A stretch of DNA of 64,000 nt from a virus: positions 39,805-103,804 of the IMG/VR virus record IMGVR_UViG_3300020172_002676; one strand, given 5' to 3'. Each line of letters opens with the position of its first letter. The first letter of the stretch is position 1. Below the pieces are notes generated by a model. The model was not told where the DNA came from, made no database searches, and saw nothing but the letters and a program-made list of their open reading frames with translations. This document shows, piece by piece, positions 5,626 to 59,416 of this stretch. A program made the translations under genes and the position numbers.

Positions 5626-8600
5626 TTAGATATTTTCAAACGAAGCTCCTGTTGGAGTTATAAAGAACTCAATATCTATGAATTCTAAAGCCTTCGTAGG
5701 TTTTAAGTAGATTTTACCTACTAATCTGTTTGCATCTAAATCTTCAGGTGAAGATGATACTGTTACACGGAAATCGTATAAACCTCTATCTCTTCTGATT
5801 GAATCTAAGATTGGATTAACACTATCTAAGAATTGTTGTCTAACGACTTGGTCGTTTTGTTCAAACAATAATCTTACCGCTACCGCTGAAATTAATTTAC
5901 GAGCTTGTAATAATAATCTTCTAACATTTAATCTGTTTAACGCTGAATCAGCAACTTGTAAGGTTTTGTTACCCCAAATTACAGTTCCAACATCAGAGAA
6001 GGTTGCGATAGGGTTGATTCTGCCTTGATACAATGTATCTCTATCTGTTTGTGTTAGTTTTTGTCTAGCTTTGATTGAATTTACAAGACCTCTTGTATAA
6101 CCCGCAGATGCGAACCAAGGGAATGCAATATTATCAGTCAATGCTAAGTTTCTACAAACTTCACCTGTTGGTGGTAAATAGATTTGTGTATTATTAACAG
6201 TATCTCTTGTTAAAATCCAAGGATAATATGTTGCAGTATAGTTAGAGTCAATTCCAGTATTATCTAAGTTATCAACTGCTTCTTGTGAATAGATGATATC
6301 TAAAGAATTTGTAGAATCAGGTGTATACATATTATAATCAGGAGTTGTTGCAATATAAACTGAATCCGCTCTTGAATATTGTACCATATCTATTGCTTCT
6401 TCAACAAGGTTTGAGTTATTAACATAATCAATCGCTGTTGTTGCAAACACGTTAATGTTTGTTGCTTCAGGGTTTGAGAATGTTAATATACCAAGTAAGT
6501 AAGCATAATAATCTGTATTTGCAAAATCTTGAGTGTTATTTTGAACCACAATTCTCTTAAACATACCGTCACCTGTTGCAGTTGGGTATTTTGTAGATGG
6601 TGCCGCTCCCGCTAAATAACCTGAAGAACCTAATTGGAATCTATCTTGGTTAGTTCTATATTCTCTATAGATATCCCATCCGTCAAATCCACCAGCAAAA
6701 CATACTGTGTATTTTCTTGAGTAAATAAAATAATAAGGATTTTCCTGAGTTTGTGGGTCAAATCTAAAATCAGCCACACCACATTCAAATGCTGTTTGAC
6801 CGCTTGTCATTGATGTATTTGCAATTGTAACAACCGTTGCTCCTGAATCCATATGGAAACCTTTACTTAGGTAATTCCATTTAATAGAATCTGTTGCAGT
6901 TTCCCACCCAACAACTGGATTTTGTTTTCCTTTATATGTTAAGAATGACTCGTCAATTCCGAATTGAGTTGAGAATCCTAAATAACTTCTTCTTATAATA
7001 TCTCCTCCCGATTCAACAGTGTTTGAACCTCCAGCGGTTGTACCAAACGGTGGGTTATAAATAACTTCACCAGGATAATAATATTGTGTTTTGAATTTAG
7101 GATAAGGTGATGGATATGCTGCAGCATCTTCGTATTCTCTTTGAGTATAACCATAGAATCCACAAGGGATTGCATCAATCGGATATTCATTCGCTAATTC
7201 AATCATAATGAATTTTGATATTAAAGCAAACTCTCCGTTAGAAGAACCAATCTTTTTAGCCACAAAATTATTAGAACCTGGGTCCATTGTACGATTTGTG
7301 AATTTTTCAATCACAACTGGGTTAGCATCTGTGTCAAAGAAATTTCTAACTAAAACATCAAATGTCATATTATTAAATGATAAATTAGCAATTGATACTT
7401 TGATTTCAGTATTTGCAGCATCACCATCGGAAATTGAAATGAATTTGAATAAGTTATAAACTTTATTACCTCTTAATTCTGAAACTAAGAATGGTGTTTC
7501 TGGTGATTGGTATTTTTCCAAATTCCAAGCAATTGATGAAGATGATTGACTTCTAGCATCAGGTAGTGCTATTAAATCACACGATAATCCACGAATATAA
7601 CCTTGGTTATATGCATAATTTAAACTTGATTGATAAAATTCTTCAACATAAATTGGAACAGCAAATCTTGACTTACCAAAATTATCAACACCTAATACCT
7701 TTGTAATGTATTTTGCCGATGATGCTAACAATGAAGTTTCAAATGAGAATGTGTTATTATCTTTAGTTATACCTGAAAGTAAGAAATTCTCAAATGGTGA
7801 ACTTGTAATACCCGAATATTGGTCAGTACAAACTAATTGTAAATCAGTAAGTCCGCTTACTTCGTAAACAGGTCCATGATTATCACCTGAAGTATTTTCA
7901 TAAAGAGAAATACCTCTTGAACGTATTGTTCCAACAACCATATTATTAAAGTCAGTATAAGCAGTTCCTGAGAAAATATAAGAATTACCCGATACAGTAC
8001 CTGTGTAACTGTTTGATGCTCCTGAAGTTAATGATGTTACAACGTAATCAAAAGAATAACCCGAATAATTATTATTTGTGTAATTTTCAAAATTTGCATA
8101 ATACCAAGGGTCATTACTACCCGCAGTTAAATCATTATATGCTAAATCATTTGAATCACAAAGATAAACATTTTGAACATTAGTATATGTTGATACTAAA
8201 TTTGTATAATCATCACTAGGTATTCCACCATATATTACAGCAGTAGTTGCCGATAATGATGGTGTATCCATAATAGTATCTAAATAATAATTAAAATCAT
8301 CAGACAATGTTGATGTTGAACCATCAGATAATCTATATTGAACATTTAAGTTTGCTTGAACTACTGCGGGTAAACTTGATGTAAAAGTTACAGTATTTCC
8401 TGAAGAAGTTCCTGTAAAAGTCGCCGACCAAGGTGTTCCTGTTGATGGGTTAGTTCCGATAGTTGTTGGGTCAACATTTGCAGTTACCCTAAGACTCCAA
8501 GAAGGACCCGCGTCATAACCAGATAAACCAAGTACTCTAGTAACAAACAATTGGTTTGATTGTTGTAAATATGATTTAGCAATATATGCTGCCTCATATT

Positions 8601-8829
8601 TAGGAATCTGAGTATTATAAAACTTAACGGGTTCTGTTCCCCCGAAATAAGCTTGGAACTCATCGTAGTTTGTTATGAAAATTGGTTCAAATGCTGGACC
8701 TTTTATTGTTTCTCCAACCAGTCCTAAAGTAGTTACTCCCACGCTTTGGGCTACGAATGATAGGTCGGTTTCAGATGTGTAAACGCCTGGTGATACGAAT
8801 ACTTTTTGATTTGCTTGTGCTGTTGCCAT
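5626..8829 (-). CDS. Tail sheath protein (gp18-like) with large inserted domains
   Basis: N-term SPGVYTSETD, C-term PWFASAG..RG, INPI, WGNKTL, LNVRRL, EQND, IYLKPTKALEFI. Confidence 0.95.
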   Translation of the reverse strand: MATAQANQKVFVSPGVYTSETDLSFVAQSVGVTTLGLVGETIKGPAFEPIFITNYDEFQAYFGGTEPVKFYNTQIPKYEAAYIAKSYLQQSNQLFVTRVLGLSGYDAGPSWSLRVTANVDPTTIGTNPSTGTPWSATFTGTSSGNTVTFTSSLPAVVQANLNVQYRLSDGSTSTLSDDFNYYLDTIMDTPSLSATTAVIYGGIPSDDYTNLVSTYTNVQNVYLCDSNDLAYNDLTAGSNDPWYYANFENYTNNNYSGYSFDYVVTSLTSGASNSYTGTVSGNSYIFSGTAYTDFNNMVVGTIRSRGISLYENTSGDNHGPVYEVSGLTDLQLVCTDQYSGITSSPFENFLLSGITKDNNTFSFETSLLASSAKYITKVLGVDNFGKSRFAVPIYVEEFYQSSLNYAYNQGYIRGLSCDLIALPDARSQSSSSIAWNLEKYQSPETPFLVSELRGNKVYNLFKFISISDGDAANTEIKVSIANLSFNNMTFDVLVRNFFDTDANPVVIEKFTNRTMDPGSNNFVAKKIGSSNGEFALISKFIMIELANEYPIDAIPCGFYGYTQREYEDAAAYPSPYPKFKTQYYYPGEVIYNPPFGTTAGGSNTVESGGDIIRRSYLGFSTQFGIDESFLTYKGKQNPVVGWETATDSIKWNYLSKGFHMDSGATVVTIANTSMTSGQTAFECGVADFRFDPQTQENPYYFIYSRKYTVCFAGGFDGWDIYREYRTNQDRFQLGSSGYLAGAAPSTKYPTATGDGMFKRIVVQNNTQDFANTDYYAYLLGILTFSNPEATNINVFATTAIDYVNNSNLVEEAIDMVQYSRADSVYIATTPDYNMYTPDSTNSLDIIYSQEAVDNLDNTGIDSNYTATYYPWILTRDTVNNTQIYLPPTGEVCRNLALTDNIAFPWFASAGYTRGLVNSIKARQKLTQTDRDTLYQGRINPIATFSDVGTVIWGNKTLQVADSALNRLNVRRLLLQARKLISAVAVRLLFEQNDQVVRQQFLDSVNPILDSIRRDRGLYDFRVTVSSSPEDLDANRLVGKIYLKPTKALEFIDIEFFITPTGASFENI

Positions 8830-57876: not shown

Positions 57877-57895
57877 TATTTATATTTAAATATCA

Positions 57896-59416
57896 ATGTC
57901 AATTCTAAGGTCATATATAGATAAAAACAACACAATCGTCTCAAATTCATTAGTTAATACGGCTAGAAACCCTATAATTGAATTGAATTTTGGTGCTTCC
58001 GATTACATTGTTCCCAATTACGGTTACAGTAGATTACTGTTTAATTTAGATTTAACTCTATTAAGAGATAATATTGCCACAGGTGTTATATCAACAGGAT
58101 GTACTACAGGTATGACTCACGTTCTTAAAATGACAAACACATCGTCATTTGATAATGAGTTATTAAATTCTTTTATGTCAAATGAAAGAAGAAGGGCAAC
58201 ATCTTTTGATTTAATATTATTTAGAATCCCACAAACATCAGGGTCAACAGGTTCTCCACAAAATTGGGATGAAGGTGTTGGTTTTGATTATACAGAATCT
58301 AACCTCAATCAAAATAGTCCATATGGTGGTTCTACCCCATTAACATACGTTGATAGTAGAGCATATTCAACAAGACCGTCTAATTGGTATCAAACCACCA
58401 CTATTAGTAATTGGTCTCAACCAGGGGTCTATAATAATAAAAATGAAGGTATTGCAGTAAATTATTCTGGATTAACAATTATCGCTCAACAACATTTTGA
58501 GCTTGGTAATGAAGATATCAATATGGATATGACCAATGAAATTCAAGGAGTTTTAAATGGTTCCATTACAGGTGTTACAGGATGGGGAATAGCATATCTA
58601 CCACAAATAGAAAATATCACGGGATTAACCGATAGTTATAGCGTTGCCTTCTTTTCAAGATATACACAAACATTCTACCAACCATTCCTTCAAACAACAT
58701 ATGATGACATTATCAAAGATGATAGAGATGTTTTCTTAAAAAATCAAACAAACAAATTATATCTTTATATCTATCAAAATGGTGATTTAGTTAATTTGGA
58801 TTCAGACCCCTATGTTAGAATTGAAGACCGAAATGGTGATGCCGTAACAGGTATGGAATCATTATCAACTTGTTTAAGAACAAGAGGAGTTTATGAAGTA
58901 ATTGTACCTAATGGATTTTTAACTTCACCAACCCCATGTTTATATTATGATGTGTGGTCAGGATTAACAATCAATGGACAATCAATTGGAAACGTAACAA
59001 ATCAATTCACACTTCAACAATATTCTGCTGGAATTCAAATTGGTTCAGTATCTAAAGACCCTACCAAGTTTGGATTTAGTTTCTATGGTATTCTACAGAA
59101 CGAACAAATTCTTAATTCCGATATCAGAAAGGTTGGGGTTACGATTAAAAACGCGTATACATCACAAGTACCACTACAAAACATATCAGCATTTTATAGA
59201 GTTTTTGTTAAAGAGGGAACCACAGAAGTATTAGTTCAAGATTGGACACCTATTAATAGAACACCTAATGAGTATTATTTCATATTTGATATGAGAGATA
59301 AAATTCCTAACCAATATTATGTTGATATTCAAGTAAATACTTCTGGAGAGAAAGATACTTATAAACGACAACTAACATTTAATGTTGTAAACACAAAAGC
59401 TAACCACACAATATAA
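57896..59416 (+). CDS. Putative virion structural protein
   Basis: SYIDKNNTI, YSRLLF..DL, WDEG.G.DY; late motif upstream. Confidence 0.6.
   Translation: MSILRSYIDKNNTIVSNSLVNTARNPIIELNFGASDYIVPNYGYSRLLFNLDLTLLRDNIATGVISTGCTTGMTHVLKMTNTSSFDNELLNSFMSNERRRATSFDLILFRIPQTSGSTGSPQNWDEGVGFDYTESNLNQNSPYGGSTPLTYVDSRAYSTRPSNWYQTTTISNWSQPGVYNNKNEGIAVNYSGLTIIAQQHFELGNEDINMDMTNEIQGVLNGSITGVTGWGIAYLPQIENITGLTDSYSVAFFSRYTQTFYQPFLQTTYDDIIKDDRDVFLKNQTNKLYLYIYQNGDLVNLDSDPYVRIEDRNGDAVTGMESLSTCLRTRGVYEVIVPNGFLTSPTPCLYYDVWSGLTINGQSIGNVTNQFTLQQYSAGIQIGSVSKDPTKFGFSFYGILQNEQILNSDIRKVGVTIKNAYTSQVPLQNISAFYRVFVKEGTTEVLVQDWTPINRTPNEYYFIFDMRDKIPNQYYVDIQVNTSGEKDTYKRQLTFNVVNTKANHTI

Follow-up and report, generated by a model that had tools for sequence, protein, structure and literature searches.

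Only a few cases of glycosylated phage particles have been described, and we know of no attachment motif that has been defined for them. The Bacteroidota have a general O-glycosylation system, which acts on exported proteins, and the chlorovirus PBCV-1 uses non-canonical attachment motifs. This virus carries a large set of sugar-building genes of its own, fucosyl- and methyl-transferases among them, with which outer proteins such as the capsid protein Vp54 are glycosylated without use of the host machinery (mentioned in PMC5852040). PMC12619734, summarising Freeman et al. 2023, describes mycobacteriophage-encoded glycosyltransferases (GTs) that glycosylate capsid and tail-tube subunits, at the C-termini of two proteins. 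In Clostridioides difficile, SgtA adds O-linked N-acetylglucosamine (O-GlcNAc) to Thr of the collagen-like (G-P-T)n sequence of BclA3 (PMC7157674). We report here on a four-residue motif, Ser or Thr followed by Gly, any residue and Thr (hereafter [ST]GxT), in the proteins encoded by a 64,000-nucleotide stretch of viral DNA (positions 39,805 to 103,804 of IMG/VR record IMGVR_UViG_3300020172_002676), called the window below. The motif, which an earlier note on the window had picked out by eye, is in real excess, and this excess is confined to virion-module proteins. Tentatively, we read it as the recognition motif of a conserved phage enzyme that may carry out O-glycosylation.

SgtA and BclA3 offer the following comparison. 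All acceptor Thr of SgtA have T-G-P-T as their context and thereby conform to [ST]GxT, and SgtA is a cytoplasmic GT-A (GT2-like) encoded next to its substrate; in the window, a conserved ("core") GT2 lies 5 kb upstream of a motif-rich gene, on the same strand. SgtA differs in carrying a C-terminal tetratricopeptide repeat (TPR), and its substrate is a tandem collagen repeat in which Ser is also accepted, whereas the sites described here are isolated and lie in globular proteins, G-x-T alone stands at 0.97x of expectation, and Ser shows no enrichment at position 4. Pfam matches up to E 5 included no TPR for the core GT2 and five neighbours; at the scale of genomes, where other TPR families were not searched, PF13414 had no match in G000, G003, G005, G006 and G010, and matched 13 of 14 control genomes. 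PBCV-1 infects eukaryotes and its glycans are N-linked, to Asn, whereas the candidate acceptors here are Thr or Ser in a bacteriophage. The mycobacteriophage sites are C-terminal, whereas a four-residue internal motif is here scattered over many proteins. The general O-glycosylation of the Bacteroidota resembles the present case in its short sequon and in the presumed host phylum, but its sequon is not enriched here. As a feature of phage-encoded virion glycosylation, we found GTs conserved with structural genes (three in five genomes, two of them syntenic with the 506-aa gene described below, in 56 of 79 distant loci). Nothing pertinent on SGxT or TGxT as a motif came up in the literature. 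Glycosylation of phage virions has been described, as have viruses that bring their own glycosylation machinery, but no internal sequon appears to have been defined for a phage in the literature that can be searched.

Excess of [ST]GxT in virion-module proteins

The window forms the final 64 kb of one viral contig of 103,804 bp, whose CheckV completeness is ∼35%. A close relative, G006, has several proteins 82-86% identical to those encoded here; its genome, of 321 kb, is complete and has direct terminal repeats. Since G006 is complete at 321 kb and the contig is only ∼35% complete, the source phage is, judged by these sequences, a fragment of an uncultured jumbo myophage. The division of open reading frames (ORFs) into virion-module and other ORFs was refined after annotation of the upstream half of the contig. 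The enrichment that the earlier note had reported in structural, as opposed to non-structural, proteins stays when composition is corrected for: the 31 virion-module ORFs contain 65 [ST]GxT, compared to 20.8 expected (P 8e-15), and the 63 other ORFs contain 7, compared to 6.0. Because the motif had originally been chosen by eye, an unbiased scan was run over all residue triples in six gapped-tripeptide layouts, ∼48,000 words in total. SGxT was counted 41 times for 12.1 expected (P 6e-11), and is the most over-represented word of the proteome, barring Thr-Pro repeat words. The proteins discussed below as carriers are the following (aa, amino acids; fractions give the number of [ST]G dipeptides that belong to the motif).

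5626-8829, minus strand: tail sheath, 1067 aa (PHROG 23, E 9e-55, residues 844-1065; phmmer match to T4 gp18, E 8e-30)
27555-29371, minus strand: Thr-rich pair of proteins (404 aa, Thr 25.7%; 185 aa, Thr 17.3%), both bearing mucin-like TPTPT linkers
29374-31362, minus strand: 662-aa core virion-associated protein, the strongest motif carrier (11/18)
50771-51052, plus strand: 93-aa protein with one S-G-x-T, kept in 42 of 47 relatives
54049-56145, plus strand: 698-aa protein, upstream of the 506-aa gene (3/12)
57896-59416, plus strand: 506-aa protein (7/12)
63278-64000, minus strand: gp23-like major capsid protein, C-terminal part (phmmer versus T4 gp23, E 1.5e-22)

All earlier counts of [ST]GxT per [ST]G were reproduced exactly. 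The 662-aa and 506-aa proteins gave binomial P values of 1.1e-6 and 5.3e-5, respectively, against their own Thr content; none of 2000 within-protein shuffles reached the count observed in either, and both pass correction for 94 ORFs. The sheath (6 of 21, or 11 of 21 if Ser is allowed; binomial P 0.012) and the 698-aa protein (P 0.025) are only nominally significant. Low counts had been claimed for proteins that are not exposed, and this was borne out (0 of 7 in the polymerase, 15623-18400; 0 of 3 in 10772-12523; 1 of 9 in the tape measure, 1326-3161): no excess was found in the tape measure, the tube-region proteins, the polymerase, the helicase, RNR, SSB and others. Among the further carriers that had been listed, copies are indeed present, but the three of eight in the 404-aa protein (27555-28769) are explained by its Thr content, and those in 56350-57876 (1 of 5) and 9108-10151 (1 of 1) are not significant. 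For the Thr-rich pair as a whole the counts are explained by composition, with 2.7 motifs obtained from shuffles of the 404-aa protein.

The definition of the motif was narrow. Downstream and upstream of [ST]G, Thr reaches a frequency of 0.21 at offset +3 from the S/T, compared to 0.05-0.12 at all other offsets from -6 to +8, and Ser is not raised at offset +3. Local Thr-richness was rejected as a cause, since Thr is raised at this offset only. At position 1 only S and T give an excess; at position 2, G is best and A weaker (2.2x). Thr is the sole enriched residue at position 4 (2.0-4.7x over six data sets, with 0.5-1.2 for V/I and 1.0-1.4 for S). In virion proteins, flat values were obtained for bare G-x-T without a preceding S/T (0.97x), for [ST]GxS (1.24x) and for the reversed motif (1.15x). 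Expressed by exclusion of S and T at position 1, [^ST]GxT gives 0.97x and [^ST]GxT[GA] 0.90x, versus 3.1x and 5.7x, respectively, with S/T. The motif had been described as distinct from the Bacteroidota host sequon, and we agree: D[ST][AILVMT] occurs 44 times in virion proteins for 56.1 expected (0.78x). The N-glycosylation sequon N-x-[ST] is at expectation there (236 versus 230, 1.03x).

The signal lies at the protein level and not in the DNA, because codon use at the motif follows the background, with both Ser codon families used; a DNA-level signal was rejected on this ground. Among the 71 sites, none of the 2485 site pairs shared 6 of 12 flanking residues, and neither self- or cross-similarity nor paralogy was found among the carriers. 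These unrelated flanks and non-paralogous carriers led us to reject an origin by repeats or paralogy in the phage's own genome, and the earlier description of the motif as scattered through unrelated proteins, and not a tandem repeat, therefore stands.

Carrier proteins and turnover of sites

The 662-aa protein has a conserved Cys-rich N-terminal region of ∼615 aa followed by a C-terminal Thr-Pro linker. AlphaFold gave no confident fold for it (predicted local distance difference test, pLDDT, 26.5). Its homologues (P0272-P0374) are 850-1130 aa long and have interchangeable C-terminal modules after the Thr-Pro linker, either BspA-type leucine-rich repeats (LRR, PF03382) or LamG (PF13385). As read from domain matches, this layout is that of an adhesin or fibre. 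In the window, the 662-aa protein ends in the linker and is followed by the linker-rich ORFs 28814-29371 and 27555-28769, an arrangement which may correspond to a split or swapped receptor-binding module.

An AF2 model of the 506-aa protein (pLDDT 89.5) predicts a jelly roll resembling a carbohydrate-binding module (CBM) over residues 1-270, and two Ig-like domains. With VIA-align, residues 1-270 matched a chondroitin-binding CBM (8wab) with Z 16.0, and residues 275-503 gave Ig-like matches; matches in BFVD were to uncharacterised phage proteins only. The family comprises more than 3000 homologue clusters, highly conserved, none of which is characterised. From the model, the protein is probably an exposed decoration or fibre protein, and in this capacity it may bind a glycan. 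That it could be the major capsid protein was rejected, given its CBM-like and Ig-like domains and the presence of the gp23-like gene at 63278-64000. The 698-aa protein was likewise considered as a portal and rejected, as a T4 gp20-like portal is located elsewhere in the complete relative G006. The contig end cuts the gp23-like capsid gene, and portal, protease and terminase lie past it. In the sheath, the sites fall on residues 143, 325, 339, 352, 662 and 676, all outside the conserved C-terminal domain (844-1065). The clustering claimed for this protein is thus seen, as 6 of 17 [ST]G outside the domain versus 0 of 4 inside, counts that are too small for statistics.

Conservation was then different at short and long distance. 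In 64 proteins closely related to the 506-aa protein and ∼82% identical, Thr of the motif are 99% conserved compared to 73.5% for other Thr (P 0.024), and position 1 alternates between S and T, remaining one or the other in 99% of cases. The 662-aa family behaves similarly: of its 11 sites, 10 are kept among 39 homologues that share 80-99% identity, where position 1 may change between S and T but is one of the two in 100% of cases. In 99 distant homologues of the 506-aa protein (30-57% identity), the query sites are not conserved in place, and 193 sites are found for 45 expected. Placed on the alignment, the sites of these homologues (200) are distributed over 74 columns, mostly in gap-rich loop regions, and in the family tree one large clade has 0-1 sites while others have many. 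Distant 662-aa homologues are top or near-top carriers in their genomes (15/26 in G005, 7/11 in G003, 18/34 in G006 and 3/8 in G010), with some sites kept and others replaced. The 57 homologues of the 698-aa protein have 109 sites for 35.5 expected, gained or lost at several columns, S-[AG]-x-T variants included. Relatives of the gp23-like capsid protein have 75 sites for 31.2 expected, with a nearly invariant T-G-S-T column (57 of 61) and several variable S-[AG]-x-T sites. Because close relatives keep their sites while distant homologues move them at maintained density, we consider that this combination of local purifying selection, long-term turnover and maintained density is, as far as alignments can tell, the pattern of a glycosylation sequon, and not one expected of a fold requirement.

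All four complete relatives (G003, G005, G006 and G010) have a proteome-wide excess of 1.6-2.6x, and when collagen-like ORFs are removed Thr at position 4 is still enriched 2.0-2.3x. Two of them have a 506-aa homologue without sites, yet a genome-wide excess, which persists because other structural proteins carry the motif. The motif-bearing relatives come from very different habitats and have GC contents of 33-37%. Three unrelated myophages without the system had no excess: 18 versus 15.5 expected in the virion proteins of T4, 2 versus 5.4 in the structural region of Mel-JY01, and none in the large structural proteins of XacN1. The excess is thus, on this set of genomes, a trait of the lineage and not of a fold.

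Two kinds of repeat protein were also encountered in the relatives. In distant ones (L096:2290-6891, L117:605-2503 and L112:7714-8643), large BspA-type LRR proteins hold C-[ST]-G-L-T and P-S-G-V-T at fixed repeat positions; their [ST]GxT counts are very high because the motif is built into the repeat unit. Collagen-like (G-x-T)n proteins are present in G006 (272532-275156) and G010.

Glycosyltransferases, sugar island and phage clade

The earlier figure of about 14 GTs was slightly high, as 11 ORFs of the window, with 12 GT domains between them, are backed by Pfam. The enzymes concerned, together with the wider gene content, are listed below.

52108-52914, plus strand: core GT-A (GT2), 268 aa (PF00535, E 9e-7, above cut-off)
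51054-52106, plus strand: core GT-B, 350 aa (PF00534, E 4e-5, below the Pfam cut-off)
34044-35252, plus strand: third core glycosyltransferase-like protein, 402 aa (weak GT-B matches, PF13692 and PF00534, E 0.003-0.007, below cut-offs)
26203-27471, minus strand: GT60-like polypeptide GlcNAc-transferase homologue (PF11397, E 6e-65)
19690-26190, minus strand: variable sugar island, part 1 (Pfam): HtrL/YibB-like protein, CmcI-like methyltransferase, GT10, PLOD-type GT, FkbM methyltransferase
37005-49046, plus strand: variable sugar island, part 2 (Pfam): GT2_5+GT4, UDP-Glc dehydrogenase, GT2, GT11, two FkbM, KAS III, hexapeptide acyltransferase, PhyH dioxygenase, DegT, GDP-mannose dehydratase, GT1_2
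49068-60361: block of conserved genes
Also in the window: a tail module, including the sheath (5626-8829), and replication genes, beside the very large sugar-metabolism island

Three GTs (34044-35252, 51054-52106 and 52108-52914) are common to all five motif-bearing genomes, namely the present one, G003, G005, G006 and G010. The latter two enzymes are adjacent and lie just upstream of the 698-, 508- and 506-aa genes on the same strand. This arrangement recurs in 56 of 79 distant loci, where the homologue of the 506-aa protein is no more than 10 kb away. No homologues of the pair were found in cultured phages. The GT2 is represented by more than 4000 metagenome clusters and shows no other Pfam domain up to E 5; it is our candidate for the initiating enzyme. 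Its GT-B neighbour has a weak match (E 1.7e-7) to PDB 8xsg, which is a glucoside glucosyltransferase from Actinobacillus (PMC12159676). Because of this match, chain extension rather than initiation is suggested for the GT-B. Homologues of 34044-35252 were found in all four complete genomes (E 6e-87 to 3e-215), and distant ones in phi92-like phages and in one 735-kb metagenomic phage. The 93-aa ORF lies directly upstream of the pair, between it and a 198-aa ORF (50182-50778) that follows PhoH, and could encode a small substrate or accessory protein of the two enzymes.

Most of the sugar island has no homologue in distant relatives that keep the motif. Even in G006, no homologue was found for GT_PLOD, UDP-Glc dehydrogenase, the GT2 at 41099-41764 (PF00535, E 8e-15), KAS III, the hexapeptide acyltransferase, PhyH, DegT, GDP-mannose dehydratase and GT1_2. 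This hypervariability resembles the diversification of O-antigen or capsule loci. The same phage encodes both a PLOD-type collagen glucosyltransferase domain (23679-24383, minus strand) and a PhyH-family 2-oxoglutarate dioxygenase (45113-46015, plus strand).

The GT60-like enzyme was analysed as a further candidate. Its gene adjoins those of the TPTPT-linker proteins (26203-31362, minus strand; also L001:1586-2650), and homologues with 42-48% identity exist in the Xanthomonas/Stenotrophomonas jumbo phages XacN1 (46%, ORF334), Xoo-sp13, CM1 and RAS14. Virions of XacN1 contain glycoproteins, as judged by staining (PMC5852040). Enzyme and TPTPT linkers are both present in the present genome, in G006 (40 linkers) and in XacN1, and both absent from G003, G005 and G010, whereas the motif excess is found in all six of these genomes except XacN1. 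The GT60-like enzyme was therefore excluded as the [ST]GxT enzyme, since three genomes have the motif without the enzyme and XacN1 has the enzyme without the excess. As it co-occurs with the linkers and not with the motif, it most likely serves the mucin-like linkers, and would then form a second candidate O-glycosylation system, separate from [ST]GxT. The earlier suggestion of a phage modifying enzyme, most simply one of the GTs, fits the virion-specific excess, but has to be narrowed: with the GT60-like enzyme excluded and most island GTs absent from motif-bearing relatives, only three candidates are left.

No close cultured phage was found, the best sheath match being 31% identical, to Microcystis phage Mel-JY01. 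The clade is very common, with more than 3000 to more than 4000 protein clusters per single core gene in public metagenomes, and its genomes are those of jumbo phages, ∼320-360 kb in size. By description, it resembles the freshwater 'moraphages', which have four core glycosyltransferases and predicted Bacteroidota hosts (PMC12619734). Two ORFs in different parts of the window, 19073-19693 (plus strand) and 62485-63174 (minus strand), are paralogues (30-34% identity, E 1e-19).

Possible readings of the motif and what they would mean

We propose that selection would have placed [ST]-[G>A]-x-T, with G preferred over A at position 2, independently and many times in loops of outer virion proteins, and that, in the cytoplasm, a conserved factor encoded by the phage would recognise it on virion proteins. 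Recognition by such a factor is suggested because Thr alone is enriched at position 4, S and T are equivalent at position 1, the excess is restricted to the outer virion and to one lineage, and the sites turn over and are independent of each other. The factor would most likely be a glycosyltransferase, with O-glycosylation of the motif Thr or of the S/T at position 1. We regard glycosylation as the simplest version because all conserved candidate enzymes that we found are GTs, because the phage invests heavily in sugar synthesis, and because SgtA with its T-G-P-T acceptors provides a precedent. Candidates would be the three shared GTs, and among these first the GT2/GT-B pair (51054-52914), while the strain-variable sugar island would build or decorate the glycan, so that relatives would have different coats on the same attachment sites. 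We infer here the modification of the motif, its sugar nature and the choice of enzyme. O-glycosylation of the motif by a conserved phage enzyme is, in our opinion, quite possible, without yet being probable.

Several observations weigh against it. Non-virion proteins do not avoid the motif (7 versus 6.0), unlike what might be expected if a promiscuous cytoplasmic enzyme recognised it. No clade genome that we examined is devoid of the three core GTs, which leaves no contrast by which a GT could be tied to the motif. A correlation of the motif with particular GT genes across relatives, raised in the earlier note, was not seen for the neighbouring pair, which does not track site counts (1.27 sites in the 506-aa homologue when the pair is present versus 1.0 when it is absent) and also occurs beside homologues without sites. 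Phage GTs can, moreover, act on DNA or on the host serotype (PMC12619734). The virion proteins of Bacteroides phage crAss001 have a weak excess (15 versus 8.1, P 0.015), and in relatives the motif is intrinsic to the BspA-type LRR and to collagen-like G-x-T repeats. Hydrophobic residues are favoured at position -1 (Trp 7x) and at x (52% versus 36% background). Finally, the 506-aa model places sites, by its secondary-structure string, where coil passes into strand, a position that would suit a structural role as well.

The main rival takes up several of these points. In this reading [ST]GxT is a structural motif, with a turn or bulge made by S/T-G and a beta-strand beginning at x-T, a loop-to-strand joint preferred by the lineage for its beta-rich proteins of the outer virion and not modified at all. 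Mapping of the sites, as proposed earlier, was limited to the secondary structure of one model: sites do lie at loop-to-strand junctions, and in three of seven of them Thr is the first or an early residue of the strand with S-G in coil or at a strand end, an outcome that fits the structural reading equally well. The hydrophobic preferences, the fixed positions of C-[ST]-G-L-T and P-S-G-V-T in the LRR proteins, the lack of avoidance in non-virion proteins, the mild crAss001 excess and the lack of an enzyme linked to the motif all go in the same direction. Against it, V and I, which are also beta-branched, are not enriched at position 4, and neither is S. The same fold is found in the large clade with 0-1 sites, sites shift between alignment columns, and proteins of unrelated folds, with no similarity in sequence, carry the motif. 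Beta-rich virion proteins of T4, Mel-JY01 and XacN1, furthermore, have no excess. On balance, we consider a purely structural role possible but somewhat doubtful.

Alternatively, the motif may be recognised by something other than a GT, either for a different Thr or Ser modification (phosphorylation, acylation, methylation or cross-linking), or so that a decoration protein, a chaperone or an assembly factor can bind. The same statistics apply to this case, as they are silent on the reader, and the island encodes a PhyH-type dioxygenase, an acyltransferase, KAS III and several methyltransferases. None of these island enzymes is conserved across the motif-bearing genomes, and the only conserved candidate enzymes found are GTs, with no systematic search made for a kinase or similar core enzyme. 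This reading appears rather improbable to us.

Modification of the motif by a host enzyme, through general O-glycosylation, with the phage GTs serving for DNA or host-surface modification, is very unlikely. It would agree with the activities of other phage GTs on DNA or host serotype and with a likely host in the Bacteroidota, the phylum predicted for similar freshwater jumbo phages (PMC12619734). The sequon of this phylum shows no enrichment in the virion proteins (0.78x), its system acts on exported proteins while virions assemble in the cytoplasm, and the excess is common to relatives of very different habitats, with GC contents of 33-37%. As for chance, a compositional artefact or a post hoc choice, the motif was found by eye and several of the proteins first listed are not individually significant, 27555-28769 being explained by its Thr content, but this explanation is effectively refuted by the composition-corrected P of 8e-15, by the rank of SGxT as top non-repeat word of ∼48,000, and by replication in 99 distant homologues and four other complete genomes.

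Returning to phage-encoded glycosylation of the motif, a wider and more doubtful extension is that this abundant jumbo-phage clade has its own sequon-directed O-glycosylation, in which the GT2/GT-B pair would add the first sugar to the motif in folded virion proteins, at exposed loops, and variable islands would build different glycans there and give 'serotypes' in the manner of O-antigen loci, beside the mucin-type system in the same particle. If phage-encoded glycosylation of the motif is true, [ST]GxT would be the first sequon to be defined for virion glycosylation by a phage's own enzymes. Being a searchable motif of four residues, it would flag sugar-coated phages directly in metagenomes; it would also help to predict the exposed surface of virion proteins, and might explain the sugar islands of jumbo phages. 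Should the motif prove structural, it would nevertheless be of use for marking the clade's outer virion proteins. A surface coat on such a common clade could influence how hosts are recognised, how far particles are grazed and how stable they are, in lakes as in guts.

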